64,000 nt of DNA from a virus (IMGVR_UViG_3300032320_002249:24851-88850); one strand, 5' to 3'; positions 4,355 to 25,572 are shown, counted from the first letter of the stretch. A program made the numbers and translations. The notes: a model not told the origin generated them from the sequence alone.

Positions 4355-4630
4355 ACTTATAATGATCTTATAAACATACCTATAATAGCCTTATAATGTC
4401 TAAATGATCTTATAAACATAGCCTTATAATAGCCTTATAATTCCCTTATAAACATACCCTTATAATAGCCTTATAATGCCTAAATGATCTTATAAACATA
4501 TAAACATACCTATAATAGCCTTATAATATCCTTATAAACATAGCCTTATAATAGCCTTATAATAGCCTTATAATTCCCTTATAAACATACCCTTATAATG
4601 TCCTTATAATGCCTAAATGATCTTATAAAC
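4355..4630. repeat. AT-rich degenerate tandem array of CTTATAA units
   Basis: About 19 CTTATAA copies by eye plus several degenerate ones; the commonest unit TAGCCTTATAA is 11 bp; no ORF. Confidence 0.95.
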
Positions 4631-4792
4631 CCCTCTGGGACTTGTGGACTAAGCCCGCAAGAACTCACACGGGCCTCTATAACACACCCAGGCCCGCGAA
4701 AATTTCTACCAGGGACACTTAAAAAACTGGCATAAGGCCCATACATACCTCATAGGTTTCTCCTATAATAACGACTTGGACACAGAGGACTT

Positions 4793-4939
4793 ATGGATTT
4801 CGAGGCATATACCACTGAAGGCTACGAATATAATGACCCCGGAGATCTCGATGGGGATTATATGAATCTCGACGATCTTCTACAAGAAGAACTAGAGGAT
4901 CGTGCATTTTATATCAACGAACGCATGTTAGTATCATGA
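4793..4939 (+). CDS. Small acidic hypothetical protein (48 aa)
   Basis: Manual ORF MDFEAYTTEGYEYNDPGDLDGDYMNLDDLLQEELEDRAFYINERMLVS with a GAGGA RBS, after the promoter cassette at 4712. Confidence 0.7.
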   Translation: MDFEAYTTEGYEYNDPGDLDGDYMNLDDLLQEELEDRAFYINERMLVS

Positions 4940-5100
4940 ATATTCCAAGGAAACAGCATAAGGTCGTCATTCTAGATGTTGAGTCTTATGATGACCTTCA
5001 TCTAGATCAGCTAGATTGGCACAAACTTCTAAATCTAGAAGGAAGCGAACAGGTTTCTGTAAAGATAAAGGAACCTTATGAAAGCCTTCTTCATAATTGA
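4936..5100 (+). CDS. Small hypothetical protein (54 aa)
   Basis: Manual ORF MNIPRKQHKVVILDVESYDDLHLDQLDWHKLLNLEGSEQV...; ATGA overlap with the previous gene. Confidence 0.7.
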   Translation: MNIPRKQHKVVILDVESYDDLHLDQLDWHKLLNLEGSEQVSVKIKEPYESLLHN

Positions 5101-5137
5101 CCAAAATCTCGACTAGGCCCACCCTTACCTTATAATT

Positions 5138-5455
5138 ATGGACTACCATCAAATTAATCAGATTAACGAGAAAATCAAAGATCTTCAAAAAGAACTCGAC
5201 AGTCTCATTGAGAAAAAGAAAACTTTAGAGGATAGCTTTATTCCCGAAGGGTTTAATCCAGTATGTGCTGAAAAGTGTGTTAATGGAAAAAATTGCCTTA
5301 GATTGGCATTTAGATGGAGTAGTACCCCACAAGGAGATGAATATTGGCGACAACGAACATATGCCCCTACTCTTGATCCTCTAGATACAATCATCATTCT
5401 AAAATGGATTGTAAACTATTATAAGGCCAAGGCCGGCTGTGGGTGCCAAAAATAA
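5138..5455 (+). CDS. Coiled-coil plus F.W..TPQG..YW domain protein (paralog family member 1)
   Basis: N-terminal heptads, AFRWSSTPQGDEYW, LKWIVNYY. Confidence 0.8.
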   Translation: MDYHQINQINEKIKDLQKELDSLIEKKKTLEDSFIPEGFNPVCAEKCVNGKNCLRLAFRWSSTPQGDEYWRQRTYAPTLDPLDTIIILKWIVNYYKAKAGCGCQK

Positions 5456-5524
5456 TACTGTCCACCCAAATCTCGACTAGGCCCAGGCACACCTTATAAT
5501 AAGAAACGTCACCCACAGCATCTC

Positions 5525-5851
5525 ATGAACATTCTAGAAATCAACAAAGAAATTAAAGCGTGCGAAAATAAACTCGTATCTCTCAAGGAACAACGTCAGA
5601 GATGTTTCGAGTCTGTTGATTTTTATCCTCCAGATACGGTGGTTTTAAAATTTGATCCCCCCGACATTCTTAGGATTCTTTCTGGTTCTTTAGATATTCA
5701 ACATCTTAACTCTTGTTTTGACTGGAGTATAACCCCACAAGGATACCAATATTGGGATGGGGTCTCAATGGAGAAAACTCTTTCTAATGAGAATCGGCTA
5801 ATTCTGCTCAATTGGATAACGAATTATTACCGTAAGAACCCGACAGTTTGA
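5525..5851 (+). CDS. Coiled-coil plus F.W..TPQG..YW domain protein (member 2)
   Basis: CFDWSITPQGYQYW and LNWITNYY, paralogous to 5138; has its own promoter cassette. Confidence 0.8.
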   Translation: MNILEINKEIKACENKLVSLKEQRQRCFESVDFYPPDTVVLKFDPPDILRILSGSLDIQHLNSCFDWSITPQGYQYWDGVSMEKTLSNENRLILLNWITNYYRKNPTV

Positions 5852-5923
5852 GAACTGTCCACCAGGGCTCCCTAGTAGGGGGCCTTTCTTGTTACCTTAT
5901 AAGGGTCCCGCCAAGTCACCCAC

Positions 5924-6619
5924 ATGGATCGCAAGGCGCTTTACGAAAAAATTCATGCAATGCTCCGACTCCAGGAGAGCACCAACTTTGAGGGAGAGGC
6001 CGCTGCGGCAGCCGCCCTCATTGATAAGCTCTGTCGGCAGTATGGTGTTACCCTTGATGACATTCTTACCCCAGAGGTCATTGAAGAAGTCTTTGCAGTA
6101 CAGAAGAAACTCAACAATGCAGAGTTCATGTTGTTTACTGCAGTGGGACGATTCTATGATGCTGCACCTATTCTGAGGAAAGTTAACGTCTCTGGACAAC
6201 GGGCTCAGCAGAAATTCGTCTGCGTGGGCACCGAGGCCCAGCAGATTCAGACTAAGCTCTATTACGAATATCTCCATGAGGTTATGGAGAGGGAGTGCAA
6301 AAAGGCCCTTACTGCGGAGAAACTGCTTGCCGAGATCCAGGGCAAGACCTTCCTTGCATATGGTTTTAGCACAAATTTCAAAAAGGCATTTGTCGAAAAG
6401 GTCGAATCTCGTCTTAATGAGATCAAAAAGGCCCAGGGGGATCATCCCCATAAGAACTACACCCTGGCGGTCTATAAGAAGATGAAGCTGGGAACTATCA
6501 AGTCCACTTATAAGATGGGTGCTGGTGCCATGGCTGGGGCACAGGTAGGGGCCTCTGTGGGGCTTTCTAAGCAGGCTAGTGGGGCTGCCAGCACTCCTAT
6601 GCTGTCAGGGTCCTTCTAG
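5924..6619 (+). CDS. DUF2786-like domain protein
   Basis: N-terminal KIHAMLRLQESTNFEGEAAAAAALIDKLCRQYGV matches the recalled DUF2786 pattern (KI.KLL.LA.S.N..EA..A...A..LM.KY). Confidence 0.7.
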   Translation: MDRKALYEKIHAMLRLQESTNFEGEAAAAAALIDKLCRQYGVTLDDILTPEVIEEVFAVQKKLNNAEFMLFTAVGRFYDAAPILRKVNVSGQRAQQKFVCVGTEAQQIQTKLYYEYLHEVMERECKKALTAEKLLAEIQGKTFLAYGFSTNFKKAFVEKVESRLNEIKKAQGDHPHKNYTLAVYKKMKLGTIKSTYKMGAGAMAGAQVGASVGLSKQASGAASTPMLSGSF

Positions 6620-6717
6620 GGGCTTCTGGGTGCCGGTTCAACAACTGGCACCCTATCCGGTCCACCCGGCATCCCTGGTTCTTATAGTTTGATTGTTCAA
6701 CCATTTAACACACACCC

Positions 6718-7026
6718 ATGACTGTTCTCGATTACACCAAGCTGAGTGAGGATGCTGCTCAGATGGTCATGACTGCTGCTGAAGAGGCCGCATCTATTCT
6801 GGATGACATTTATGATCGGGACACCGAATCCCGTGATAATGCTGTCCAGGAACTCTGTGATGAGGCAGGTATCGCCAATGATCCTGAAGTGAATGGTGAT
6901 GAGATCAATGATCTTATCATCGAAAACGAGGATACCCTGCGCGTCAACTACATCAATGATACCTATGGTGAGGGGGTTGATAATCCTCTTGCTGAGGGTG
7001 AACTTGAGGAAGGGGACGAAGACTGA
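6718..7026 (+). CDS. Very acidic 102-aa protein (candidate DNA mimic)
   Basis: 32 D/E versus 4 K/R by manual count; has its own promoter cassette at 6630. Confidence 0.8.
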   Translation: MTVLDYTKLSEDAAQMVMTAAEEAASILDDIYDRDTESRDNAVQELCDEAGIANDPEVNGDEINDLIIENEDTLRVNYINDTYGEGVDNPLAEGELEEGDED

Positions 7027-7104
7027 TCTGGCACACTTCTAGGGGATCTGGGCTTCCGGGTCCCCTATTCTTCTAGAAGCCCCTACAACGTTTTTAAACC
7101 ACCT

Positions 7105-7605
7105 ATGGCTACCAACTACCGCAGGCTGTCCGTTGATCTTCTGAACTGGCTTGCAGCCGCCCCTGAGGGGGATCGGCGGGCCTATCGGATCACTTCAGAG
7201 TTCGCCATTCGTCATCCCAACTTCTTTGGCGAATTCATCAAGAACGATAATTACCTCGACTTCCTCCATTCTATGTTGAGGAGTAATTCTCTCTGTGAGG
7301 GTAATACCATTGCTATTCGCCTGGTCAAGAAGCACCGGAAAGAGATGGTGATTATCTATAAGGATCTCATCAAGAATACCCAGGTTCTCATCAAGAATAC
7401 CCAGGCTCCTCCTACTCACCGGCATTTGAACTGGCTTTGGTCAGACCTTATAAACACCGAACTTCATAAACTCATTGCAGAAGATACTGGCCGCCTCAAT
7501 AAAATCCGTTATATTAAACGGGTCAGAGAATTGTCCGGCCTGGGACTGCGTGATGCTAAGGGCATTGTGGATCGCCTGTATGATACTGCTTTTAGGGGGG
7601 ATTGA
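7105..7605 (+). CDS. Protein with a C-terminal ribosomal protein bL12 (L7/L12) CTD-like motif
   Basis: NKIRYIKRVRELSGLGLRDAKGIVDRL resembles the bL12 signature KI.VIK.VR..TGLGLKEAK..VE. Confidence 0.65.
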   Translation: MATNYRRLSVDLLNWLAAAPEGDRRAYRITSEFAIRHPNFFGEFIKNDNYLDFLHSMLRSNSLCEGNTIAIRLVKKHRKEMVIIYKDLIKNTQVLIKNTQAPPTHRHLNWLWSDLINTELHKLIAEDTGRLNKIRYIKRVRELSGLGLRDAKGIVDRLYDTAFRGD

Positions 7606-7712
7606 CAGACCTGGCCTTCTGTGACTAGAATAGCTATGTCTGGCGCAACCGGGTCGTATAAGAACCCTTAAGGAACTTATAGGACCCTTACAAATCTTTA
7701 GGAGGCAAACTA

Positions 7713-8021
7713 ATGCAATCTGTTCAATTCAATCATATTGACCAAATGATTATCCAACAGATCGTTATGGTCAATATCCGAAAGGACATTGATTATACCG
7801 TTAATCAGATCAAGGAATTCCTTTCTGACAGGTTTCCTAATGTCCTGTTTCAAGTCATTGTTGAGGATAAGGGATCCAATAGGTCCCTTCATATTAAGAG
7901 TGACGCCCGACTTGATAATGTCGTGTTCCACCACAATCGTCCCAATGATGATCGATCTGTAGAAGAAAAGGCCGCAGAACTTGAGGTTACTGTAGATTAT
8001 TACATGATGGAGTTCCAGTAA
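7713..8021 (+). CDS. Hypothetical protein
   Basis: Upstream TTGACA-18-TAGAAT promoter (7602-7631) and AGGAGG RBS. Confidence 0.75.
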   Translation: MQSVQFNHIDQMIIQQIVMVNIRKDIDYTVNQIKEFLSDRFPNVLFQVIVEDKGSNRSLHIKSDARLDNVVFHHNRPNDDRSVEEKAAELEVTVDYYMMEFQ

Positions 8022-8023
8022 TT

Positions 8024-8152
8024 ATGTCAATGTATTATGATGATGAGCAATATTATGATGATGACTATGAGGAACAAAATCTAGACGATGAATCAGAGGA
8101 AGTTACTCTAGATGAATTCGTCAAAAAACTTAATGGTCAATATGACTTTTGA
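8024..8152 (+). CDS. Small acidic peptide (42 aa)
   Basis: Manual ORF MSMYYDDEQYYDDDYEEQNLDDESEEVTLDEFVKKLNGQYDF, ending at the next cassette. Confidence 0.6.
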   Translation: MSMYYDDEQYYDDDYEEQNLDDESEEVTLDEFVKKLNGQYDF

Positions 8153-8231
8153 GGACAGTTCATCAAGTGTCCACTGATCATTCCACCATCCCACTTTCCC
8201 CACTATCATAAAGAAGTCTTAAATCAGACCT

Positions 8232-8480
8232 ATGACCCAAGAACAGTACGAGCAAGCATGTCTGCTTCAAAAGCGAATCAAACATGCCCAAAATTCCATC
8301 GAACGGCTCAAAGATACGAATCCTAATATCCCTCCCTCTGCGGATATTATTGTTTTTTCGAGTGGTCAAAAGCTCACTGAACATAATGAGCTTTTTGGAA
8401 AGAATGTATTCTTCCAAGCTCTCCTAGATTTTTATATCTCCCAGCGAGATAAGGCCCAAGAAGAATTCGAGGCTCTTTGA
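8232..8480 (+). CDS. Hypothetical coiled-coil protein
   Basis: ORF directly after the cassette at 8152. Confidence 0.7.
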   Translation: MTQEQYEQACLLQKRIKHAQNSIERLKDTNPNIPPSADIIVFSSGQKLTEHNELFGKNVFFQALLDFYISQRDKAQEEFEAL

Positions 8481-8485
8481 TAACC

Positions 8486-8617
8486 ATGCCTGACACATAC
8501 ACTTTCATCGGAGACGGGGTTACCTATCTTGGCGGCATTGCCGTTGTAGCTACACCTCTCTTTCTGATCTTTCTCTGGACCTACTTCTGGAAAACCAATC
8601 CTGACCGACGAAATTAA
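8486..8617 (+). CDS. Small single-pass membrane protein (43 aa)
   Basis: Manual ORF MPDTYTFIGDGVTYLGGIAVVATPLFLIFLWTYFWKTNPDRRN. Confidence 0.65.
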   Translation: MPDTYTFIGDGVTYLGGIAVVATPLFLIFLWTYFWKTNPDRRN

Positions 8618-8618
8618 A

Positions 8619-8756
8619 ATGAACATTCTTCAAAGGATCTTCAATCGAGAAGAACAACAAGAACAACAAGAACAACAAGAACAAGAAGAGTCTCCTGTTT
8701 CTAACGAACAGGAAGATGAATCATTTCCTTATATGGAACCCCTGTGTGACATTTGA
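8619..8756 (+). CDS. Small E/Q-rich peptide (45 aa)
   Basis: Manual ORF containing the in-frame (GAACAACAA)3 repeat. Confidence 0.5.
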   Translation: MNILQRIFNREEQQEQQEQQEQEESPVSNEQEDESFPYMEPLCDI

Positions 8757-8813
8757 GGATACCGGGCCTATACTCTAGGCCCATTTCCATTTTTAACTTA
8801 TAGGAGAACTAAT

Positions 8814-8963
8814 ATGATTACTAAGCAAAGTGCTATGCGTAAACTGAATGATGCTGAGAATTCTAGTGAGATTCTAGAAGCCCTGGACAACATCAAAGAA
8901 AAACATACTACAGTCAAGACTCAAAAGCCTTCTGTGCCAGTTGAGAAAGTGGCAACCACCTGA
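8814..8963 (+). CDS. Small hypothetical protein (49 aa)
   Basis: AGGAG RBS; the C-terminal VPVEKVAT is encoded by palindrome 1 at 8934. Confidence 0.65.
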   Translation: MITKQSAMRKLNDAENSSEILEALDNIKEKHTTVKTQKPSVPVEKVATT

Positions 8964-9016
8964 GGCACCCCAGAAATCTCGACTAGTATAATGGGAATGC
9001 TATACAGCTTCTTATC

Positions 9017-9205
9017 ATGAGAACTGCATTTGTTTCCCCCAAGTCCAAAAAAGCAAAGAATAGGTTCATCAACATGATGGATTCTATTGATGAAGTTATC
9101 GTTGAACAGATGACTTCCACCAAGGCATTTGTTACTTCTCTCAATAAGAAGTACCATTGCTGGATCAATCTTGTCAATGATAATGATTGGTCTATTGACT
9201 TCTGA
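9017..9205 (+). CDS. Conserved cyanophage-type hypothetical protein
   Basis: PKSKKAKNRF.N.M pattern recalled from T4-like cyanophage early genes; has its own -10 (8987-8992). Confidence 0.7.
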   Translation: MRTAFVSPKSKKAKNRFINMMDSIDEVIVEQMTSTKAFVTSLNKKYHCWINLVNDNDWSIDF

Positions 9206-9270
9206 GTGGACGGTTGGCTGAGTGTCCCATAAGGACTTTACAGACCGATCCATCCAGGGTATCTTATAAA

Positions 9271-9350
9271 GGTCCGCCTGGACCGTGGACAATTACAAGT
9301 GAAATGAGTATGACTCTCACCTAGGAACCCCTAACCGGGTTCCTTTTTTT
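9271..9350 (+). ncRNA. Candidate sRNA of about 80 nt
   Basis: Palindrome 1 plus TTTACA-17-TATCTT promoter (9237-9265), two hairpins, then intrinsic terminator AGGAACCC-CTAACC-GGGTTCCT-T tract (9323-9350); no ORF in between. Confidence 0.5.
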
Positions 9351-9475
9351 GTCTAGGCACCAGTGGACGGTTGCCTGAGTGTCCATGGTTCTCACACCAG
9401 TCCCCGGAAAGGTCGTATCTTATGTGCATCGGAGGGAAACACGTCACAACCTCCGCTCAAACCACTTCAACTCTC

Positions 9476-9997
9476 ATGGCTACCACTCCCGCTACCGTTG
9501 TCGTCAAGTCCAAGAAAGTTCGTCGTCCTGCAATGAGCACCCTCATCAAGGCACTCGAAAAGCTCGAACCGACTATCAAGGTTTCGGAAATCTCCAAGCT
9601 CTCCGATGAACGTGCCGCCGAAGTCGTGGCCCGTTTCAAGAATGTTACCACTGAGAAGAAGAAGGAAGCCTGCCTCCTCACCTTCTTTAAGGAGGAACTG
9701 AACACTCAATTGAAGGGAGGGGCAATGTTCATTGAAATGCTCTATACCTGCAAGACTGAGAAAACCAACTATGCCCGTCTTCGTCCCGTCTACCGGGATC
9801 TGGTTGGCCGTGGTGAACTTCCGGACTGGGCTCGCCGTCGTGAACTTCTGCTCGCTACTTCTGCGATCTGGCGTTATACCTTCAATGGTCATAGTGCCTC
9901 TCATAAGTTCACCATTGATGCAATGATGGAATGTACTGATTGCTGTGCTTATGTGCAGAAAATGGTGGCCCGTCTGAAGAAAGAAGGGCTCTGGTGA
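9476..9997 (+). CDS. Hypothetical basic protein
   Basis: Start moved to ATG 9476, downstream of the cassette at 9364. Confidence 0.7.
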   Translation: MATTPATVVVKSKKVRRPAMSTLIKALEKLEPTIKVSEISKLSDERAAEVVARFKNVTTEKKKEACLLTFFKEELNTQLKGGAMFIEMLYTCKTEKTNYARLRPVYRDLVGRGELPDWARRRELLLATSAIWRYTFNGHSASHKFTIDAMMECTDCCAYVQKMVARLKKEGLW

Positions 9998-10078
9998 GCC
10001 ACTTCCTAAAGTGACACAAGGGGGATCCACAAGGGGTCCCCTTCCTCTATAATACATACATCTTCGAAATTCAATTTT

Positions 10079-10543
10079 ATGTCTGTTCTTCCTGTTACCG
10101 ATTTTCGTACCTACTTCCTGGATCGCATCTTTACTGATGTGATTGAAGGAAAGATCACCTATCAGAAGGCCGTCAGTATTGTCAATGAGTCTGGCATCAT
10201 TTTCTCGACTAGGGAAGAGGCGCAAACTGTTCTCAATAGTATCTCGCAATCTCCTTCTCGTCCTGCACAAACTTATGCGGATCTGACCAAACAAAAACCT
10301 GTTGAAGATAACAGTGTTGTCACCAGAAATTATGATATGGAGAGTTCAAGTGCGGTGAGTCGCATTATGGTTGATCCTACTCGTTCTCGGGCAGAGATCA
10401 CTTATAGGGGCAATAATCGCACCTATTCTTATACCTGTCCTGGCAATGCGCGAGTGATTCGTGATGCTGTCCGAGATGGTATTGAAAGCCCTGGTGCCTA
10501 TGTGCATAACCTGCGTTCCAGCCGTCTGATCGTCCCTGAGTGA
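10079..10543 (+). CDS. Protein with a C-terminal KTSC-like domain
   Basis: ESSSAVSRIMVDP....AEITYRG..RTYSY...ES.GAYV resembles the KTSC pattern (SS.I..IGYD......V.F..G..Y.Y....S.G.YF). Confidence 0.55.
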   Translation: MSVLPVTDFRTYFLDRIFTDVIEGKITYQKAVSIVNESGIIFSTREEAQTVLNSISQSPSRPAQTYADLTKQKPVEDNSVVTRNYDMESSSAVSRIMVDPTRSRAEITYRGNNRTYSYTCPGNARVIRDAVRDGIESPGAYVHNLRSSRLIVPE

Positions 10544-10612
10544 CACTTGTTGGACTGTCCACTAGGGACTGGTGATTGTCGATCCTGGCCCCTAGTATTG
10601 GATGGTCCTCTT

Positions 10613-10686
10613 GGGGGTGTATCCCAATAGGCAGAGGAAGCGCACTTAAAATGCGTTCAGTGTGGGTTCGAATCCCGCGGCCCCTA
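10613..10686 (+). tRNA. trnL: tRNA-Leu(UAA) with a short variable loop and an imperfect acceptor stem
   Basis: D arm TCC-CAATAGGCAGA-GGA; anticodon arm GCGCA-CTTAAAA-TGCGT; T arm GTGGG-TTCGAAT-CCCGC; acceptor GGGGGTG/GGCCCCT; discriminator A; no CCA; own promoter cassette at 10540. Confidence 0.8.
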
Positions 10687-10704
10687 TTCCCACAATTAAC
10701 TTCA

Positions 10705-10956
10705 ATGACCTACTACACTATTCACGACAAGTTTATTGTTGAGGCAAGAAATGAAGATGGAACACTCTGCTCTTATGAAGAGGAAACAAAGCGGTTTAAT
10801 GCCCATCCTTTCCTGAAGAGAAAGCAGTATTTTACGCTTGATGAGCTTGTATATTGGACAAGTTATGGTGAAGGGAGAAATACTCCCATGGGGCAGGATA
10901 AAGCCTTTGAGTTTCTTAGGTCTATCGGTCTGCCTGCTCGTTACAAGTATTGGTGA
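10705..10956 (+). CDS. Hypothetical protein
   Basis: Start moved to ATG 10705 because the longer ORF call overlaps the tRNA. Confidence 0.7.
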   Translation: MTYYTIHDKFIVEARNEDGTLCSYEEETKRFNAHPFLKRKQYFTLDELVYWTSYGEGRNTPMGQDKAFEFLRSIGLPARYKYW

Positions 10957-11034
10957 CCATAAGGAAAGCTAATCGGTCGGGGCTTGCCAGTCCCCCCGGT
11001 TGGACCCTATAATTCTTTCAGTCGCAACCAAACG

Positions 11035-11697
11035 ATGTTCGTCCGGTTCATTCCCGCCAGCGGAAACTCCAAGACAGGCCCGATCCCAGTCTCCTACACT
11101 GAGCGGGAATCCTGCCCGTCTACCTGCCCGTTCTACAACAAGGGCTGCTATGCCAAGTATGGTCCCACTGGTATGTGGTGGCGCAAGGTTCGGGACCTTG
11201 GCGCGGCCTGGGATAAGTTCTGTAAACAGGTTAAGAAACTGCCTAAGGCTCAACTCTGGCGCCACAATGTTGCTGGGGATCTGCCTCATAAGAATGGCGA
11301 AATCTCCTACATGATGCTTCGCCAGCTCATTATGGCCAATAAAGGAAAGCGTGGTTTCACCTACACTCACCATGAGCTGCATGAGCACAATCGGGTGTGT
11401 CTGGAGAACGCTAATCTTATGGGGTTCACGGTTAATGTCAGCTGCGAGTCTATCGAACAGGCTGACCGGGTTATGACAGACTACAAACTGCCTGCAGTTG
11501 CAGTAGTCAATTCCACTAAGATTGAGCGGTTCTACACTACTGAGAGCGGTCGGAAAGTTATCACTTGCCCGGCGGTTCTTCACGAAGATGTTACCTGCTC
11601 AACCTGTGGTATCTGCCAGAACGCCAAACGTGATACGATTGTAGCCTTCCCGGCCCATGGCATCGCTACTAAGACGGTGAACACAATCGTCTCCTGA
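11035..11697 (+). CDS. Cys-rich gp88/DUF7227-like protein (possible Fe-S enzyme)
   Basis: SGNSKTGPIPVS, CPSTCPFYNKGCYA (C-x3-C-x6-C), WRHNVAGDL, FTYTH and a C-terminal C-x9-CxxCxxC cluster; TTGCCA-18-TATAAT promoter. Confidence 0.6.
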   Translation: MFVRFIPASGNSKTGPIPVSYTERESCPSTCPFYNKGCYAKYGPTGMWWRKVRDLGAAWDKFCKQVKKLPKAQLWRHNVAGDLPHKNGEISYMMLRQLIMANKGKRGFTYTHHELHEHNRVCLENANLMGFTVNVSCESIEQADRVMTDYKLPAVAVVNSTKIERFYTTESGRKVITCPAVLHEDVTCSTCGICQNAKRDTIVAFPAHGIATKTVNTIVS

Positions 11698-11772
11698 TTC
11701 TGTAGTTCAGGGGACCCTAATCGGTCCCCCATTCCTTCCAAAATCTCGACTAAATCACACGCAAAAATCATC

Positions 11773-12249
11773 ATGTCTGTTGTTGAATTTTCTCAGTATT
11801 CTGTCATCAAGGTTCTTCCTCAGTATGACAATCCCGATAAGATCATTCAATTCATTCACCAAAAGATCAATTCTACCAATTGTCTCGATGATCTGTTTGA
11901 TGAAGACAAACAGGAATTCATTGATAATTACATTCTTTACATTTATCCCACCTGGCAAGAACACTATGATGACGTAGATGATTATAGGGAAATGAATAAT
12001 ACCTATTCCTTCCAATCTTCTCCTGACATGTATCTGATTCTGCATGAACCGGAGAAAGATTACTATAATGTTGAAATCTATAATAAAATCAATACCATTC
12101 TTCAGGAGATTCAGGTAGGTCTTAGAGAGGAGAATTGGGTTACTCTCACATCCCGCTCAAGCATTGGCGGCACTAATTACTATGATCCAGATGGTAAGTT
12201 TGTAGATGTTCATAATCTGTATTCTCAGTATAAGCGTATGACAGCCTGA
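11773..12249 (+). CDS. Acidic hypothetical protein (GT.YY..DGK family)
   Basis: The C-terminal GGTNYYDPDGKFVDV resembles the end of the next ORF. Confidence 0.75.
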   Translation: MSVVEFSQYSVIKVLPQYDNPDKIIQFIHQKINSTNCLDDLFDEDKQEFIDNYILYIYPTWQEHYDDVDDYREMNNTYSFQSSPDMYLILHEPEKDYYNVEIYNKINTILQEIQVGLREENWVTLTSRSSIGGTNYYDPDGKFVDVHNLYSQYKRMTA

Positions 12250-12329
12250 CAACTGGCACAAGGGGCACTCTGGATTCTTCTAGGGTGCCTTATTCTTATC
12301 TCATGCGAACCTTCCCGCACAATCCCACC

Positions 12330-12755
12330 ATGAGCACAACTCTTCCCTCCGAGTATTCTGCTGTTGCTACCTGCACAATCCCAGAAGGTACACCAACTGC
12401 CGAGAGTGTTGCAATGGCAGTTTATGACTTTATTGTAAATCATCCTGAGATTAAGATTCCAGAATATACTGAAGAGTTTAATTCTGATGAGTTTTATGAG
12501 GAGTTGCTTCCTTATCTTCAAGTTGAAGATAATCTCCTTGTAATCTCTTATGACGGGTCTTCTCCAGAAAACGGTAATTGGAGAGACCAGATGTTTAATT
12601 TCCTGGTGAATCATTTTGTCACACTTCAGACTTCCGATTACATGATGGTTGTTTGGCAGACTGGAGATAACTACGGAACTGATTACTATGGGAAAGACGG
12701 GAAGATTGATATTGAAGAAGCTATTAAGTTCTATCTGAAGCATAAGAACAACTAA
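12330..12755 (+). CDS. Acidic hypothetical protein (GT.YY..DGK family)
   Basis: C-terminal YGTDYYGKDGKIDI; start placed downstream of the -10 at 12291-12296. Confidence 0.75.
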   Translation: MSTTLPSEYSAVATCTIPEGTPTAESVAMAVYDFIVNHPEIKIPEYTEEFNSDEFYEELLPYLQVEDNLLVISYDGSSPENGNWRDQMFNFLVNHFVTLQTSDYMMVVWQTGDNYGTDYYGKDGKIDIEEAIKFYLKHKNN

Positions 12756-12820
12756 TCAATCGGAGGGGTGCCAGTGGTGCCTCTCCGTGCTACAGTTCTC
12801 ACAGATCACAGGAACCACCT

Positions 12821-13042
12821 ATGGCACTCACTCCTGAACAACACGACGAACTGGCTGAGATCTATGCGAATCGTGTTGTAGATAACATGGATGCTAAATC
12901 CATGGAAAAACTTCTTTTTGATATGCTTCTTGATTCTTATTCCAGTCAGTCAGAATGGGAACTCGAAGAGCTTATTCTGGCGACTGATGGTCAAGAATAC
13001 TATGATGGCCTGGTTCAGTCCGTTACCAATGAGGAAGGCTGA
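12821..13042 (+). CDS. Small acidic cyanophage-type hypothetical protein
   Basis: ORF after the palindrome-2 cassette at 12741. Confidence 0.75.
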   Translation: MALTPEQHDELAEIYANRVVDNMDAKSMEKLLFDMLLDSYSSQSEWELEELILATDGQEYYDGLVQSVTNEEG

Positions 13043-13206
13043 TGACACTCACTCGCTGGAAAGTCACTCTGATTATTGACATTGAGGAAGGATCCCATCC
13101 ACGAAAGTTCGTTACCGAATCAATCAATATGGGATTGCATCAGGAAGAAGATCTAGTAGATTATCATTTCGAGGAAGTTCCTTCCGATTTTTCCTATCCC
13201 AACTAA
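13042..13206 (+). CDS. Small hypothetical protein (54 aa)
   Basis: Manual ORF MTLTRWKVTLIIDIEEGSHPRKFVTESI...; TGATG overlap with the previous gene. Confidence 0.65.
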   Translation: MTLTRWKVTLIIDIEEGSHPRKFVTESINMGLHQEEDLVDYHFEEVPSDFSYPN

Positions 13207-13207
13207 C

Positions 13208-13369
13208 ATGAATTCAGAAACCACAGTTATTGCCAAGGTTGATGACATTAGTATTGAACAAGATCATGAAAATGGTCTTTGCCACATCATTGATGGAGAA
13301 AATGCTATCCGTTTGAGTCTTGAGTACCACCAACTTGAAAGACTGGCTAGTCAAATCATCAAACCATAA
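13208..13369 (+). CDS. Small hypothetical protein (53 aa)
   Basis: Manual ORF MNSETTVIAKVDDISIEQDHENGLCHIIDGENAIRLSL..., coupled to the previous ORF. Confidence 0.6.
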   Translation: MNSETTVIAKVDDISIEQDHENGLCHIIDGENAIRLSLEYHQLERLASQIIKP

Positions 13370-13400
13370 TTCTGCGCCCGACAACCCACTCAATTCTGAA

Positions 13401-13538
13401 ATGACTGAATCCAACGCTCTTTTTTACCTTCTCATTTCTCAGATGTATCTGATGATTGCGAATAAAAATAACCCTGCTTTTCTTTCGCTGTTAGCATGTT
13501 TCTGGATTGTGCTTTCTATCGTTGCTTCGGCCACCTGA
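13401..13538 (+). CDS. Small membrane protein (45 aa)
   Basis: Two hydrophobic stretches; the stop codon lies inside palindrome 1 at 13528. Confidence 0.6.
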   Translation: MTESNALFYLLISQMYLMIANKNNPAFLSLLACFWIVLSIVASAT

Positions 13539-13609
13539 CCAACTGGCACAAGGGGCACTCTGGAGTCTTCTAGGGTGCCCTACAGTTCTCACAGGTTCAC
13601 CAAAACGTC

Positions 13610-14242
13610 ATGAATCCACCTCTTTCCTGCGAAATCCCTTTTTCTGGGTTTTACAATAGTGAGCATGATGCCGCTATTGATCAAGTAACGGATTATTTGT
13701 GGGAAGATCTGGATGATACTCTTTTTCAGACTTTCCATAAAAATGTTAATTGGCAGAGGGTCAATGATCTTTATGCTAGGGGCTATGTGAAATGGCTTGC
13801 AGAAGCCCTCAATACTACCCTGGAGTTTGAGGAATTGCTGTCCCCTAGGGACTACAATTTCACAACAGATCGCATCTTCGCTAAGGTCGGATATGGGTTT
13901 GTCTTCAGAATGCTCAGTGAGGTTCAGTGCAAAAAACTAGACGAGGTTATTGAGGAACGATTCACCAATCGTCCTGGTTTTATATCTCACTATCCCAATA
14001 ATATTTCTGAATGGCCAAGGCTCATTTCTGAGTGGGACTATAACCATCTTGGAACTGTCATGGTAGCCTACATGAGAGATAATGAACTTCGGGATACTGA
14101 TTATGCTGAGTATGCCCTGGAAAAGGATTCTTCTACGGGCTATCTGAAAGATTTGATTCTTTCTTGCGCCAATGTTAAGGCTAAGAAAGCCTTTGAGGAA
14201 GCAGACTATCTTCCTCTGCGAGAGGAACCTGTGACAGTCTGA
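13610..14242 (+). CDS. Conserved phage hypothetical protein (IPFSGFY motif)
   Basis: EIPFSGFYNSEH and SPRDYNFTTDRIF motifs; own cassette; stop codon inside the next palindrome. Confidence 0.8.
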   Translation: MNPPLSCEIPFSGFYNSEHDAAIDQVTDYLWEDLDDTLFQTFHKNVNWQRVNDLYARGYVKWLAEALNTTLEFEELLSPRDYNFTTDRIFAKVGYGFVFRMLSEVQCKKLDEVIEERFTNRPGFISHYPNNISEWPRLISEWDYNHLGTVMVAYMRDNELRDTDYAEYALEKDSSTGYLKDLILSCANVKAKKAFEEADYLPLREEPVTV

Positions 14243-14314
14243 TAACCGGCACAAGGGGCACTCTGGATTCTTCTAGGGTGCTCTATACTACACTCAGTTA
14301 CCCAAAGGACTCTC

Positions 14315-14509
14315 ATGAAAACCGTTGCAGAATTGGTAAAAGAACTCCTGGAACTTCCTCAGGATCTCATTGTGATGGCATTAGATAACATGGGACCCAC
14401 CACAATCGGATCTTGTCGCACTTATACAGTGACACAAAATGATGAAGACGATTCTGGTTCATGTGATGGGCTGGTAGGCAGAGAGATTGTGGTGATTCAT
14501 ATTGATTGA
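14315..14509 (+). CDS. Small hypothetical protein
   Basis: MKTVAELVKELLELPQDLIV N-terminus; own cassette and AAGGA RBS. Confidence 0.75.
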   Translation: MKTVAELVKELLELPQDLIVMALDNMGPTTIGSCRTYTVTQNDEDDSGSCDGLVGREIVVIHID

Positions 14510-14594
14510 TGTGACACCCTGACAACTGGTACACAAGGCGCTATGGATTCTTCTAGGGTGCCCTATACTACATTCAGTCAACCAAAAGACTCTC

Positions 14595-15131
14595 ATGCCT
14601 GATCTTTCTCAGTACCTCGGCAAAAAGGTCGAGGTTGTTCTTCGTTCTGGTTATGTATTCACTGGAGAGATTCTCCGAAATGGGACCCCTTATAGTAAAT
14701 ATCCCTTCATGTTTAGGGGAAATACTTATACGAAAACCGGAAACTTTTGGGACAATCAGAGCATGTCTCACTATGATATTATTTCCATCAAGTCCATTGA
14801 CGATAAGGATTCTTGTGAAGAAATGAAGCAAGAGCTTCAAGAACTGCGTCAGAAAGTGTCAGCTCTTCAGCAAGAAATCGACACTCTGAAGAACGCAAAA
14901 CCGACTATTCCTCATGGCTTTTCACGCAAGGATTGCCTGAAACTTCTGGATGGCGAGACTTCTCGATTAACTGTATGTTATGCGTTCCGTTGGGACAAAA
15001 CTCCACAGGGATACCAATACTGGCAATCTCTTACTGACGACGTTGAAAAGGGGAAGAGTCTTCCTAAAGAGGCACTGGACTACATCAAAGACATGGTGAT
15101 TCTCTCTTATCGACAAGAACAGGGAGAGTGA
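14595..15131 (+). CDS. Modular protein: beta-domain A + coiled coil + F.W..TPQG..YW domain
   Basis: N-terminus shared with 15741; C-terminus (AFRWDKTPQGYQYW) shared with 5138 and 5525. Confidence 0.8.
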   Translation: MPDLSQYLGKKVEVVLRSGYVFTGEILRNGTPYSKYPFMFRGNTYTKTGNFWDNQSMSHYDIISIKSIDDKDSCEEMKQELQELRQKVSALQQEIDTLKNAKPTIPHGFSRKDCLKLLDGETSRLTVCYAFRWDKTPQGYQYWQSLTDDVEKGKSLPKEALDYIKDMVILSYRQEQGE

Positions 15132-15215
15132 TCTAGACACTTCATTCACTGGCACAAGGGGCCTTGAACTCTCCCAAGGCCCTGCAATACTTGATTTGTA
15201 CCCGAGAGGTTCTCA

Positions 15216-15665
15216 ATGGCAAGTCTTCAGCTGACCCGCACCATGCTCCAATACAATCTTGCAGAGGCTCGTAAGCACGATCCTTCCAACAATCTTTCCT
15301 GCCTTGAAAGGCTGCAAGAACTCTATGATGAGTGCAACGGCATTTATCGAGAAATGGGAGTGGTTGATTATAGCATCAAGGTCTTCATTCCCTTCAAGGT
15401 GCGGATGCAAGAGCACCAGGCTGATACCTATCTAGATGAGGCCACAAACTACTGGGAACAACTTGGTCCTCTTCAGGTTCAACGTAGGAATCGCAAAGGT
15501 GCTAAGCATGGTGGCGATCGGATTGTGACTGTCGAGGGTTACATTCTGCGTCGGGTTGATACTCATGGTGTTACTCGTTGGTATTCCAATGACTTCAACT
15601 GGCACTATAAGAGCTTCAAGGAGTTTCGTGCCATCCTGAAAAACTACTTTGGGGCGACAGTCTGA
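15216..15665 (+). CDS. Hypothetical protein
   Basis: Own cassette (15134) and GAGG RBS; stop codon inside the next palindrome. Confidence 0.8.
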   Translation: MASLQLTRTMLQYNLAEARKHDPSNNLSCLERLQELYDECNGIYREMGVVDYSIKVFIPFKVRMQEHQADTYLDEATNYWEQLGPLQVQRRNRKGAKHGGDRIVTVEGYILRRVDTHGVTRWYSNDFNWHYKSFKEFRAILKNYFGATV

Positions 15666-15740
15666 GAACTGGCACAAGGGGCCTTGAGTAATCCCCAAGG
15701 CCCTGTCATACTACATTCAGTCCATCATTCTTCTCTTCTC

Positions 15741-16244
15741 ATGAATTCCGATTATCATTGCTCTTGCCCCATTGATCTTTCTCGTTACCTTTACAACAAG
15801 AAGGTTAAGATGACTTTTCGAAATGGCGATACTCATGTTGATACGATTGTTTCGAATACTTCTGGTAGTTTCCAAGAGACACATCCATATCGTTTGTCAA
15901 AACGGGAATACAGTTATAGAAAAGATGGATCATATCACGCTCAGGTTGGTGAGGTTTTTCCCTACGACATTGTAAAAATTGAGCTTGTTGATCAGCCCAA
16001 GTATCATCACCTTGAAAAACAGGTGAAGGAAATGCAGAGGCAAATTGAGGTGACTCAAGCCGAGATTCAGCGTCTCAAGAATGAGGAAGAAAACACTCTT
16101 GCGGAGTATTCGGGTTATAGAGTAGTGAAGGAAAACCAAGGGGCTGTGAGTGGTTCAGTGGTTTTTTATCGCCCGAACGGTGATCGATGTGATCGTCTCC
16201 CCTATCATGTGATGATGCAGCTGGCCAAGCAAATGTCCAGCTGA
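15741..16244 (+). CDS. Modular protein: beta-domain A + coiled coil + different C-terminal domain
   Basis: DLSRYLYNKKVKMTFRNG...YDIVKIELVD aligns with DLSQYLGKKVEVVLRSG...YDIISIKSID of 14595. Confidence 0.8.
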   Translation: MNSDYHCSCPIDLSRYLYNKKVKMTFRNGDTHVDTIVSNTSGSFQETHPYRLSKREYSYRKDGSYHAQVGEVFPYDIVKIELVDQPKYHHLEKQVKEMQRQIEVTQAEIQRLKNEEENTLAEYSGYRVVKENQGAVSGSVVFYRPNGDRCDRLPYHVMMQLAKQMSS

Positions 16245-16316
16245 TCAACTGGCACAAGGGGCCTTGAGTAACTCCCAAGGTCCTGTCATACTACGTTTGT
16301 TCCTGGAGCAGTGCTC

Positions 16317-16707
16317 ATGAAAAACACCAACGGCGAACCTGTCCTTTCCGCTGCAAGTGTTCGGGTTTATCGCAATCATCGGGAGAACTGCTGGAGCATC
16401 CAGCGCAAGACTTCCAAAGGTTGGAGAGTGTGGCTGCGCTGGGACTATGTTGTTCTTGACAATGTTGATTTCATTGTCAACAAGGCAGGACAAGATCGTG
16501 TCCGAAAAGAGAACAAAAAGTATGTTCATGCCTTTGCCCAAGGTACTCTCATGGCGAACACCTTGGGACCGAGAGAGAATGATTCGGGTGAATTATAATC
16601 CTTATGATACCGATTTCTTCCAAACTCGTCATGGTGATCTACATAAAGCACAACGAGTTTGGTTGACAAATGAGGGTGAAGTTTTCTGCGAGGGTATCAC
16701 AAAATAG
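16317..16707 (+). pseudogene. Conserved phage hypothetical gene (VYRN..., KYVHAF..G, V.YNPY) frameshifted at a (GA)4 repeat
   Basis: The N-half (16317-16598 frame) and C-half (...RVNYNPYDTDFF..., 16357 frame) join into one ORF if one GA is added at about 16570-16579. These motifs are recalled as co-occurring in a single protein family. Confidence 0.6.
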
Positions 16708-16787
16708 ACACCTTCACAACTGTCACAAGAGGCACTCTGGAGACTTATAGGGTGCCCTATCCTAAGAGAGTCGATCCCCCAGGAACC

Positions 16788-16943
16788 ATGAAAACGATCT
16801 ATGTGACCATCAAGGTTCAGATTGAGTCTGATGCTGATGCCCATGAGACCATCCAGGAATGTGACTACTCCATGACAGGAGAGGGTATCCTTGGAACGGA
16901 GATCATCTCAGTAACAGACGAACACGATGTTTCTGTCTTCTGA
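16788..16943 (+). CDS. Small hypothetical protein
   Basis: AGGA RBS; start placed after the cassette at 16705. Confidence 0.7.
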   Translation: MKTIYVTIKVQIESDADAHETIQECDYSMTGEGILGTEIISVTDEHDVSVF

Positions 16944-17023
16944 GGACGGTTTCTGAACTGGCACAGGGACATCCAGTGTGGTGTCCCAGCTGCTAGGATT
17001 ACCTCAGTTCACACGATCCAGTG

Positions 17024-17194
17024 ATGACCACCACTGACTACAGCTGGGCAGAGAACGCCATGCGCTGCTCTGCTGTTCGGGCACAGTCCCTGGTGCCTTA
17101 TGAGGCACAATCCTGGGCACACTACAGACTGCAGCGGGAGCGTGATACCCTGCGGGCCTTGATTGATCTGCATGTTCGCCTACACCCCTGCTGA
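17024..17194 (+). CDS. Small hypothetical protein (56 aa)
   Basis: Manual ORF between the cassettes at 16943 and 17200. Confidence 0.6.
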   Translation: MTTTDYSWAENAMRCSAVRAQSLVPYEAQSWAHYRLQRERDTLRALIDLHVRLHPC

Positions 17195-17283
17195 GTTCAT
17201 GGACGGTCGCTGAACTGGCACAAGGGGCCTTGAGTAACCCCCAAGGCCCATCTATTCTGAATCTGTTCTTGAGGAATCAAACG

Positions 17284-17946
17284 ATGGTGAAGTTCATCCT
17301 TCGGATTGAAGAGCACGAAGAGTATGGCGGTTTGGGTATTGTTTTCAATACCGGCCGGGACTATTTTCAGCCTGCTCTCGATGGTGACATTCTTGCCCAT
17401 GACATTCTGGAGCATCCTGTTACTCCACATTCCAATGGTTACATTGACGAATTGATGGCTTTTGGAGGTATTATTGCAGGGAGAATTACGACTGGTTGGA
17501 TGACAAGATACGGCAGAAGAGCTACTACTAATTGGATTGTTGATGATGTAAGATCTCTAGCAGATGCTGCCCTAAATGCTGAAGATAACGTCTGCCCAGA
17601 GATTTGCACAAGTTATCTGCAAGATAGCGACCTGATGGATGTGATCAAAACGAACGTTCATAAGGGACTTTTGGACGCAGTGAATGAATACGAAGACGAA
17701 GACTATACACGCATCCCAGCAGAGTACGATTATGATCTGGAATCTATTGTCGGTTGGATCTGTCGTGGTTACCAACTATACAGAAAAAGGTTCGGAAACA
17801 ACGTTTATGATGTATCCAATCACCTCTTTGATAAGATCTCGCTAGTATGCAATGACTGGTTGAAAGTTGCAGAAGAGGGAGACTTTGCCGAACTCATTAT
17901 CAACTTTTCCAGCCTCAATGCAGAATTGATCCGCGAAGAGGTTTGA
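17284..17946 (+). CDS. Acidic hypothetical protein with an AHDILEH...DELMA motif (possible metal-binding enzyme)
   Basis: H-x3-EH motif plus a downstream Glu; GAGG RBS after the cassette at 17200. Confidence 0.75.
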   Translation: MVKFILRIEEHEEYGGLGIVFNTGRDYFQPALDGDILAHDILEHPVTPHSNGYIDELMAFGGIIAGRITTGWMTRYGRRATTNWIVDDVRSLADAALNAEDNVCPEICTSYLQDSDLMDVIKTNVHKGLLDAVNEYEDEDYTRIPAEYDYDLESIVGWICRGYQLYRKRFGNNVYDVSNHLFDKISLVCNDWLKVAEEGDFAELIINFSSLNAELIREEV

Positions 17947-18007
17947 CAACTCGGGAGATCTAGTCTAGGATTAGGTCTCCCACTCTCCCCGCAATTCTTC
18001 AATCTCG

Positions 18008-18205
18008 ATGGACTCTCAACAATTTCTCTATGAAACTTATCGCAAGTTTCAACAAGACAATAAGCACCAAAGAATGGGTCAGTTTTACTACAACCAGTTC
18101 AGGGATCAGTTTCCTAACATAGAAGTTCCTGAGGAAGCTGATTGTTACTATGATGACAAAAAGCTAGTGATTTTCTGTATCTTTGTTGGAAACCAGACAC
18201 TCTGA
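18008..18205 (+). CDS. Small hypothetical protein
   Basis: TTGACA-17-TAGGAT promoter at 17943; stop codon inside palindrome 1 at 18194. Confidence 0.7.
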   Translation: MDSQQFLYETYRKFQQDNKHQRMGQFYYNQFRDQFPNIEVPEEADCYYDDKKLVIFCIFVGNQTL

Positions 18206-18276
18206 CAACTGGCACAAGGGGCCTTGATCTACTGGCAAGGCCCTGCAAGGATAGGTTATCCCAAAGGAGGTTCCTC

Positions 18277-18507
18277 ATACCCATCAAACACATTCTCGCT
18301 TCCTGTATTTCTTGTGCTGATGATAAAGGCACAATTTCCTATGGGTTAGCTCTTACTCTTGTGGAGCACTATAACCTGACCGATCAATTCCAAACCGAAT
18401 TCGGTATAGCTGGAGACTGGGAAGATGTAGTGGATGATTCACCTATTGGGCTTGACCTGGGAGAGTTAATTTTGTGGATTTCTGATCGTACCACTCTCAA
18501 CCGATAA
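18277..18507 (+). pseudogene. 76-codon reading frame beginning with ATA behind a strong RBS (mutated or non-canonical start)
   Basis: AAAGGAGGTTCCTC-ATA-CCC... stays open to TAA at 18505 and fills exactly the space between two cassettes. Confidence 0.55.
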
Positions 18508-18585
18508 GCAACACTTATCATTCAGGGGTTGACAGGATCAGCCCCATGCCCTATTCTAAGGAAGTCAACCAAGGGAGGTTTCCCA

Positions 18586-18708
18586 ATGACCAGTTTCCAT
18601 TTTCGTTCTGTCTGCGATCTCCAGACTCGCCGCCTCATGTGGATCAATGAGGAAGGCAAGATTGCAGAAGCCTGGGAGTGGGCTGCAATCTGCCGTAGGA
18701 TGTCCTGA
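18586..18708 (+). CDS. Small hypothetical peptide (40 aa)
   Basis: TTGACA-17-TATTCT promoter and GGGAGG RBS. Confidence 0.65.
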   Translation: MTSFHFRSVCDLQTRRLMWINEEGKIAEAWEWAAICRRMS

Positions 18709-18766
18709 ATCATCTCCGGGGGATGCTACAATCATCCCCTATTCCTCATTCCTTCGCTATCTGATC

Positions 18767-19117
18767 ATGGCAGTTTATCTCAACACCTACGAAACCTGGG
18801 AAGCCTATGGCGGCCCTGAGGAAGGTGGATGGTGGTATGAGTGTGGTTCTCCAGTTCAGTCTCTCCTAATCTCTCACGATGATTATGAGGAATGGATGGA
18901 AAACGCAACCGATGAGTTGCTTTCTATGCGTGAAAAAGCAACCTATAACTACACCCAAGGCCAGGCCCCCACTCCAATCAAGAATGGTATGGGAGGTTAT
19001 ACTTTCGTCCTGGGTAGTGATACCCCTTCAACCTACCAACGGGATAACAGCTTTAATTCATGCTTCGAGGAGCATTTTGCAGAGCCTTATCCTAAGGAAA
19101 GGCCCCACTACTGCTGA
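18767..19117 (+). CDS. Conserved phage protein with a YGGPEEGGWWY motif
   Basis: The motif is recalled as recurrent in phage early genes; start moved to ATG 18767. Confidence 0.75.
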   Translation: MAVYLNTYETWEAYGGPEEGGWWYECGSPVQSLLISHDDYEEWMENATDELLSMREKATYNYTQGQAPTPIKNGMGGYTFVLGSDTPSTYQRDNSFNSCFEEHFAEPYPKERPHYC

Positions 19118-19150
19118 TTCATTCAATCCACAAATACAGGAAGTTTCCTC

Positions 19151-19639
19151 ATGCTTACCGGATCCAGTCTCCTCTCTATTCATTCTCTCGATCTTCCCCT
19201 TAAAGAAAAGACTATCAGGGCTGGATACGGCCCCCGTCCCAATAGAAAAACACCACAGTACACTAGGTATTATGAGAACATCCTAAGAGCAGAAGTGCAA
19301 CGGGATGCAGAGTTGACAGAAGGAAATACAATTGACATGCAAATAGTCAATGCAATTCGAAACAAAAACACTACAACTATTGGAAACAGCAAGATTATAG
19401 TAAATGGAGAAACCGTCAAGGTACATCTCTATTTTGATGAGATTGCCGTTATCTCATACAAAACCAGGAAAGTTCAGGTCTATAGTGTGAACAAGTCCAA
19501 GACTATCAAGACCAGGCTAAACCGAATTCTGATGCACTTCACCGGGACTAAGCTATTCCAAAAAGACCAAAAGTGGTTTATCTCCTCAGCCCTGGAATTA
19601 CATCCGTTTGATTTTATTATGGAAGTTCCCATGATCTGA
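19151..19639 (+). CDS. Cyanophage-type hypothetical protein
   Basis: The C-terminal half (VKVHLY..EIA.I...SKTIKTRLNRIL) resembles a common T4-like cyanophage early family. Confidence 0.7.
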   Translation: MLTGSSLLSIHSLDLPLKEKTIRAGYGPRPNRKTPQYTRYYENILRAEVQRDAELTEGNTIDMQIVNAIRNKNTTTIGNSKIIVNGETVKVHLYFDEIAVISYKTRKVQVYSVNKSKTIKTRLNRILMHFTGTKLFQKDQKWFISSALELHPFDFIMEVPMI

Positions 19640-19726
19640 CCCATAAGCAACACTGATCGTTCAGGGGGTTGACTGGTTCCGGTTTATCCCCTATTCTAAG
19701 AGAGTCAACCAAAGGGAGGTTTCCCC

Positions 19727-20089: not shown

Positions 20090-20261
20090 TTAGATCGAGG
20101 CCCCTTAATCTAGGGGCCTTTTCTTATGAAATCTCGAAGAGATACTATCAGATTATCTTATAGGTCTCAATCATCTCATAAGAACTACTAATCAATCAAC
20201 ACTTGACAAAATCACAAATCCTGGTTATTGTATAAGAGTAAACCACAAAGGAAGGTTTCCA

Positions 20262-25349: not shown

Positions 25350-25543
25350 TGGCCTATACAATACTCTATGAGAACCAGACCCTTGCTTCTAACCTATCTA
25401 AAGACGAGTGCTTTGATAGGTTAGAAGACCTGGCCCAGGAATACTATAAGGATAAGAAATGGGATCCTTCTAAAATTGGGGTTAGGTGGACACCTGATGA
25501 ACTGTCCACAGATGGGGGTCCGGTCCCTGACCAGGGATTATAA
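25349..25543 (+). CDS. Conserved cyanophage hypothetical protein
   Basis: Coupled ORF with L...E.FD.LEDLAQEYY. Confidence 0.7.
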   Translation: MAYTILYENQTLASNLSKDECFDRLEDLAQEYYKDKKWDPSKIGVRWTPDELSTDGGPVPDQGL

Positions 25544-25572
25544 TGATCAGGTAAACATTGAGATTACTCATC

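Follow-up and report, generated by a model that had tools for sequence, protein, structure and literature searches.

Palindrome and -10 box promoter cassettes ahead of small genes in a T4-like cyanomyovirus contig, and a possible link to the host CGRE1 activator site

The DNA analysed here (the window) is a stretch of 64,000 nucleotides that covers bases 24851-88850 of the 88,850-bp IMG/VR viral contig IMGVR_UViG_3300032320_002249. Its left part carries many copies of a 22-bp palindrome, GTGNCAGTT-N4-AACTGNCAC, which precede a -10 box at a nearly constant distance. A T4-type structural module is encoded in the right half of the window and comprises baseplate proteins (gp6-like and gp8-like), neck proteins, terminase, sheath, portal and scaffold. 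Its portal protein shares 72% identity with that of the freshwater Synechococcus phage S-SRM01 and 69% with that of P-SSM2. Because the structural module is of T4 type and the portal resembles those of these two phages, the contig was assigned to a T4-like cyanomyovirus. CheckV estimated that it represents ~41% of a genome, and a near-identity search of 50,697 phage records yielded no match to it. The majority of genes in the cassette region have no known function.

Twenty-two copies of the palindrome, 20 clear and 2 weak (5443 and 9364), were located in window 4712-18215. The first-pass annotation of the window had counted 21 in this span, and all 12 of the coordinates that it gave were correct. 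The span itself was too narrow, one copy being found at 25487 and 14 upstream of the window, in the first 24.8 kb of the contig. The 22-mer of that annotation, used with up to 3 mismatches, gave 10 matches against 0.10 expected. When 2 mismatches at most were allowed, the 18-bp core GNCAGTT-N4-AACTGNC matched 38 times in the 88,850-bp contig, compared with a mean of 2.3 and a maximum of 5 in 50 block shuffles. When a -10 box at a gap of 29-31 nt was required in addition to the palindrome, 31 cassettes were obtained in the contig and 0-1 in the shuffles. Thirty of the 31 lie on the plus strand, which is the coding strand, before small open reading frames (ORFs). The structural module (26-64 kb) contained no palindrome copies in the contig scan. 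A position matrix recovered every site on both strands, and the flank is asymmetric, with CACA following the right arm. An exact-palindrome enrichment scan missed the motif because its criterion was too strict.

Between the 22-mer and the -10 box that follows it lie 29-31 nt, with three ambiguous -10 assignments set to a gap of 31. The palindrome centre is therefore 45.5-47.5 nt from the last -10 base; the fixed distance claimed in the first pass was upheld and its range of 46.5-47.5 bp was extended. By contrast with this distance, the position of the upstream stop codon varies from -54 to +46 relative to the palindrome, often with a TGA within the N4. The sites stand at gene junctions, ~80 nt ahead of the next start codon, and the units downstream are small genes, one tRNA-Leu(TAA) and one possible small RNA (sRNA). 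The -35 boxes are weak, as had been noted before, the best match averaging 2.9 of 6 positions against a background of 2.5 at random positions. Sequences between the palindrome and the -10 box, which had been said to differ completely, are unrelated in most pairs (median identity 31%). The exceptions are two duplicated spacer sub-families (A and B) at 12238-18215, which are 80-92% identical and each contain a GC-rich hairpin. With starts placed ~7 nt past the -10 box, the palindrome would span about -65 to -43, centred at ~-54. At the orthologue of the DUF2786 gene, the palindrome was kept at the same place in three of four related viral contigs while the spacer had diverged. The palindrome with its -10 box very probably constitutes an early-type promoter cassette, for which the proposed order is the palindrome, then the -10 box after 29-31 nt of free sequence, then a leader of ~25 nt and a small gene (coordinates in Table 1).

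Related phage genomes and host genomes were scanned for the motif, as the first-pass annotation had advised; enrichment was obtained in four cyanophages, with no excess in five host genomes and hardly any enrichment in a fifth phage, as described below. Syn9 contained 13 cassettes of the same geometry, compared with 0-1 in shuffles, and these cluster at 43-53 kb ahead of small genes. The core was enriched relative to a reversed control in S-SRM01 (30 and 12 matches, respectively), P-SSM2 (20 and 5) and S-SKS1 (15 and 7). The first-pass annotation could not confirm whether the site had been described in other cyanomyoviruses; given these counts, it is probably not a new one. Doron and colleagues reportedly identified, in 2016, a novel regulatory element for the early genes of Syn9 and P-TIM40 and host-like promoters for the middle genes, and both promoter types are said to be conserved among T4-like cyanophages. 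The cassette is most likely this early-gene regulatory element. It agrees with that account in belonging to a T4-like cyanophage, and in placing many small early-region genes under one promoter class that is not of the -35/-10 type. A second, host-like class (TTGACn-N17-TATTCT) stands beside the palindrome class, as is reported for the middle genes in that study. To our knowledge, and in the searchable literature, no factor that reads the cyanophage early element has been named.

The palindrome was compared with known promoter types. NtcA (GTA-N8-TAC) and CRP (TGTGA-N6-TCACA) sites, centred at -41.5, were ruled out because both consensus and position differ, in agreement with the first-pass annotation. 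The cassettes do resemble the cyanobacterial 'type 2' promoters of NtcA, in which a -10 box without a -35 box is accompanied by a symmetric upstream site for a dimeric activator. They differ from NtcA promoters in sequence and in lying about one helical turn further upstream (~-54 rather than -41.5), which is more like class I activation than class II. Sigma-54 promoters (TGGCAC-N5-TTGC, -24/-12) were also ruled out: the right arm has TGGCAC, but this is ~30 nt before a -10-type box and has no TTGC at N5. Cyanobacteria are not known to have sigma-54. The promoter-early stem-loop (PeSL) cassettes of T4-type phages, reportedly described by Arbiol and colleagues in 2010, are similar in being repeated intergenic units of early promoter and stem-loop in a plastic genome region, and sub-families A and B with their GC-rich spacer hairpin recall them. 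Unlike PeSL units, most cassettes here have only the palindrome and the -10 box in common, not the whole unit. MotA boxes replace the -35 box of T4 middle promoters and require phage MotA together with AsiA, two T4 proteins by which the host polymerase is reprogrammed. The first-pass analogy with them stands in so far as both are phage-wide promoter classes of T4-type phages in which an upstream element stands in for a poor -35 box. It is loose in that the MotA box is asymmetric, lies at -30 and serves middle genes, whereas the palindrome is symmetric, is centred at ~-54 and precedes early-type genes. A MotA-dependent middle promoter was ruled out by this symmetry and position. The MotA_activ domain was not found in the contig or in four cyanophages, in a search for this domain that had no positive control. 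T4-like cyanophages are described as lacking AsiA and MotA (PMC5780444).

A host regulatory site with the same arms is CGRE1, a palindrome of 21-22 bp whose edge lies 55-57 nt ahead of the yfr2 start site (PMC6191309). The GntR-type regulator PMM1637 binds CGRE1 in pull-down and in electrophoretic mobility shift assays, where binding is lost in the R50A mutant (Lambrecht et al., 2018; PMC6191309). In an E. coli assay, green fluorescent protein expression driven by the yfr2 and yfr4 promoters is higher with wild-type PMM1637 (PMC6191309). Elsewhere in MED4 CGRE1 was found nowhere, being confined to the yfr2 sRNAs (PMC6778093). For comparison with the phage sites, yfr2 was first located in Synechococcus MIT S9451 by the published GGAAACA repeat and then by RNA homology; of 61 genomes from the picocyanobacterial family, 56 were found to carry a homologue. 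An Rfam search of eight host loci gave no match. Ten yfr2 promoters carry (C)AACTG[G/T]CAC-N1-2-GTG[A/C]CAGTT(G). The phage arm AACTG[G/T]CAC(A) equals the CGRE1 half-site over 9-10 bp; the degenerate position and the T/A that flanks the arm agree as well. The half-site matrices of phage and host had a correlation of 0.94, and none of 5000 column permutations was as high, although the value is inflated because the host sites were picked with the phage-derived pattern.

The two sites also share their register. In 11 yfr2 promoters, two of them without a recognisable distal arm, 42-44 nt separate the end of the host GTGNCAGTT arm from the -10 box. The distal phage arm, in the same orientation, ends at this same distance of 42-44 nt (29-31 + 9 + 4). 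If the -10 box occupies -12 to -7, the edge of the GTGNCAGTT arm is at -55 to -57, which is the published position of CGRE1. This edge is matched by the phage GTGNCAGTT arm alone, and the whole phage palindrome reaches 13 bp nearer to the promoter, so that its centre is at ~-54 compared with ~-66 for CGRE1. Phage and CGRE1 promoters are alike in having no clear -35 box, and the host site is an activator site. In the host CGRE1 drives only yfr2 sRNAs, whereas the phage palindrome would drive dozens of protein genes and a tRNA. The arm arrangement of CGRE1 was absent from the contig and from Syn9. At 113545-113564 of Syn9 (NC_008296), TACTGTCA-TGAA-TGACAGTT has a host-like CGRE1 arm order with a 4-nt spacer and may be due to chance. 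Exactly one GntR-domain protein, of ~340 amino acids (aa), scored above the Pfam cut-off in each of five host genomes, and with this one Pfam model none was detected in the contig or in four complete cyanophage genomes.

The explanation that we favour as a whole, to which we give a probability of roughly 45%, is that these are early-type cassettes with an activator palindrome bound by the host regulator PlmA. A dimeric DNA-binding protein on the palindrome would recruit the host RNA polymerase holoenzyme, in a manner resembling cyanobacterial 'type 2' promoters, which depend on an upstream activator. This activator would be the host GntR-type PlmA (PMM1637 in Prochlorococcus MED4), which is already in the cell when the phage DNA is injected. 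A host factor is favoured over a phage-specific one because the arms equal the half-site of the CGRE1/PlmA activator site. PlmA is the best candidate for the protein that reads the palindrome, and its assignment is put forward tentatively. On the phage sites PlmA would adopt a different dimer geometry, with a centre that is nearer to the polymerase, by about one helical turn, than it is on yfr2 promoters. The broader idea, that T4-like cyanophages start infection by borrowing PlmA and that their early promoters are rearranged copies of CGRE1, is possible but rather doubtful.

Several points weigh against PlmA, in addition to the inflated matrix correlation. Compared with CGRE1 (AAC..CAC-N1-2-GTG..GTT), the phage arms are swapped (GTG..GTT-N4-AAC..CAC). 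Because arm order and spacing both differ, the two arrangements could not both be read by a rigid symmetric dimer; either the winged-helix domains of PlmA would have to be flexibly tethered, or a different protein of the same specificity would be at work. Host genomes were scanned with the phage 18-mer, with the right arm plus -10 box and with the outer 22-mer frame, each against a reversed-pattern control, and the phage arrangement was in no excess in any of the five genomes (Synechococcus WH7803, RCC307, MIT S9451 and MIT S1220, and one Cyanobium genome). The matches that were obtained are coding sequence. Since the arrangement is not enriched in these genomes, the host provides no example of a promoter at which PlmA uses it. 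The high-light Prochlorococcus phage P-TIM68 was hardly enriched, with at most 2-3 cassettes, so the element is not universal. The palindrome is presumed to be identical with the Syn9 early motif, and to match the logo, of Doron and colleagues. Induction of yfr2 through PlmA takes place under particular conditions (nitrogen starvation, high light), but expression of early phage genes would be expected under any. No paper tying PlmA or CGRE1 to cyanophages was found in the searchable literature.

The palindrome itself is predicted, with good probability, to be a protein-binding activator site. At every variable position, agreement between the arms equals the expectation under independence (15 compared with 14.6 at the A/C position, 16 compared with 18.1 at the G/C position). 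This lack of compensatory change argues for a protein site and against a hairpin, and on these grounds a terminator or processing hairpin was rejected. Function as a nucleic-acid structure of any kind, whether a 3'-end hairpin (terminator, RNase site or stabiliser), a cruciform or a gene-cassette recombination site, is considered very improbable. The location at the end of the upstream gene, with its TGA stop often inside the N4 loop, would suit such a structure, but it is the distance to the -10 box that is fixed and not the distance to the stop codon, and no U-tract follows the palindrome. The identity within sub-families A and B is what duplication or recombination would give, and the PeSL cassettes offer a likeness; in Syn9, however, the inner stem positions are poorly conserved while the outer GNCA and TGNCAC are kept. 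A conserved palindrome with diverged spacers and independent arms fits a dimeric protein that reads each arm separately. Together with the fixed -10 distance and the absence of a consensus -35 box, the independent arms agree with the dimeric-regulator site proposed in the first pass.

Among protein-based alternatives, a phage protein with the same half-site preference, present in the virion or made just after injection, might activate the early promoters independently of PlmA. The GTT-N4-AAC arrangement was found in phages only and not in the five host genomes, its spacing is unlike that of CGRE1, and a DNA-binding protein could hide among the many genes of the region that have no known function. 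We nevertheless regard this as unlikely, because a half-site of 9-10 bp in the same register as a host activator site is hard to get by chance, and because the very first transcription cannot depend on a protein that is made only after injection. The lack of a GntR-type winged helix in the contig and the four cyanophages points the same way, for the part of the genome that the contig covers and for the single Pfam model used. The palindrome might instead be an operator, at which a phage or host repressor shuts off the early genes as middle and late transcription begins. A site at about -65 to -43 overlaps neither the -10 box nor the start site, promoters without a -35 box need help to fire, and the matching host site is an activator site, all of which make an operator improbable. 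In its favour, the symmetric site is present on a whole early class that must go off together, and phages without AsiA and MotA (PMC5780444) need another route of shut-off. Operator shut-off could coexist with activation early on.

T4-like cyanophages rank among the commonest viruses that infect the main primary producers of the ocean. An early-gene element was reportedly described for them in 2016; the analysis here shows that the arms of the palindrome, which is most likely this element, are half-sites of a biochemically known host activator site. If PlmA is indeed the activator, early phage transcription would be wired to the host PII-PipX-PlmA nitrogen and light signalling, and hosts that lose or alter PlmA would thereby have a means of intracellular resistance to phage. 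The cassette also marks starts of transcription units in uncultured cyanophage contigs and is of use in their annotation.

The first-pass annotation had placed a tRNA and a candidate sRNA among the units behind the palindrome. The tRNA was confirmed, and an Rfam search of window 1-27000 returned it as the sole match. The unit after the palindrome at 9207 is ~70 nt long, with a terminator made of an 8-bp GC-rich stem and T7 (window 9260-9352). It has no Rfam match and its fold z-score is unremarkable (-0.8). This unit is the better sRNA candidate, compared with the unit after 18194. The palindrome at 18194 is followed by no ATG gene; a frame with an ATA start (18277-18510) begins 7 nt past the Shine-Dalgarno (SD) sequence AAAGGAGG and probably encodes a protein, from a start codon that is non-canonical or mutated, rather than being an sRNA.

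Table 1. Palindrome cassettes in the window and the units that follow them (window coordinates; all features on the strand given).
Feature	Position	Strand	-10 box and spacer	Downstream unit
Cassette	4712..4769	+	22-mer 4712-4733; 30-nt gap; TATAAT 4764-4769	Gene 4793-4939
Weak cassette, degenerate left arm	5443..5500	+	TATAAT 5495-5500	Gene 5525-5851
Cassette, perfect 18-bp core	5840..5898	+	Ambiguous: TACCTT at gap 31 or TATAAG at gap 36	DUF2786 gene 5924-6619
Cassette	6630..6688	+	TATAGT	Gene 6718-7026
Cassette	8152..8209	+	TATCAT	Gene 8232-8480
Cassette	8934..8992	+	TATAAT	Gene 9017-9205
Cassette with candidate sRNA	9207..9352	+	-10 at 9260-9265	Candidate sRNA; intrinsic terminator 9323-9351
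Weak cassette	9364..9421	+	Palindrome near-identical to 9207 copy	Gene 9422-9997
Cassette	9996..10053	+	TATAAT	Gene 10079-10543
Cassette with tRNA	10540..10687	+	-10 at 10593-10598	tRNA-Leu(TAA) 10612-10687, driven directly
Cassette, sub-family A	12238..12296	+	Spacer hairpin GGGGCAC...GTGCC	Gene 12303-12755
Cassette, sub-family A	13528..13586	+		Gene 13610-14242
Cassette, sub-family A	14231..14289	+		Gene 14315-14509
Cassette, sub-family A	14511..14569	+		Gene 14595-15131
Cassette, sub-family B	15134..15192	+	Spacer hairpin GGGGCCTTG...CAAGGCCC	Gene 15216-15665
Cassette, sub-family B	15654..15712	+		Gene 15741-16244
Cassette, sub-family B	16234..16292	+		Gene 16317-16598
Cassette, sub-family A	16705..16763	+		Gene 16788-16943
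Cassette	16943..16999	+	Gap 29	Gene 17024-17194
Cassette, sub-family B	17200..17258	+		Gene 17284-17946
Cassette, sub-family B	18194..18510	+	Weak -10	76-codon frame from ATA 18277
Outlying cassette	25487..25544	+	TATAAT	Gene 25573-25716, just ahead of structural module

The palindrome cassettes end where a second type starts. Six copies of this second promoter cassette, each ~100 nt long, lie in window 18529-22210 and have consensus sigma-70 boxes (TTGACn-N17-TATTCT). They contain a conserved upstream stretch and a conserved leader with an SD sequence, and several copies follow hairpin terminators. They are probably promoters of the host-like (middle) class. Immediately ahead of the first palindrome cassette, window 4360-4630 is occupied by a non-coding array in which an 11-nt unit of the CCTTATAAT type is repeated ~24 times, which amounts to TATAAT boxes spaced roughly one helical turn apart.

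The contig contains a strong step in GC content, from 42-47% in the early region (window 1-26000), with up to 54% at 22-24 kb, to 31-33% in the structural module (window 26000-64000). Acquired DNA, different codon pressure or an assembly chimera could be the cause. Palindrome cassettes are present on either side of the first GC rise. In the structural module the large terminase subunit is encoded by two adjoining ORFs, 54012-55904 (630 aa) and 55917-57098 (393 aa), the first of which has a faint LAGLIDADG-type match; this suggests a fractured gene or a split-intein arrangement. The baseplate region holds two giant ORFs, of 3422 aa (29322-39590) and 2359 aa (41201-48280).

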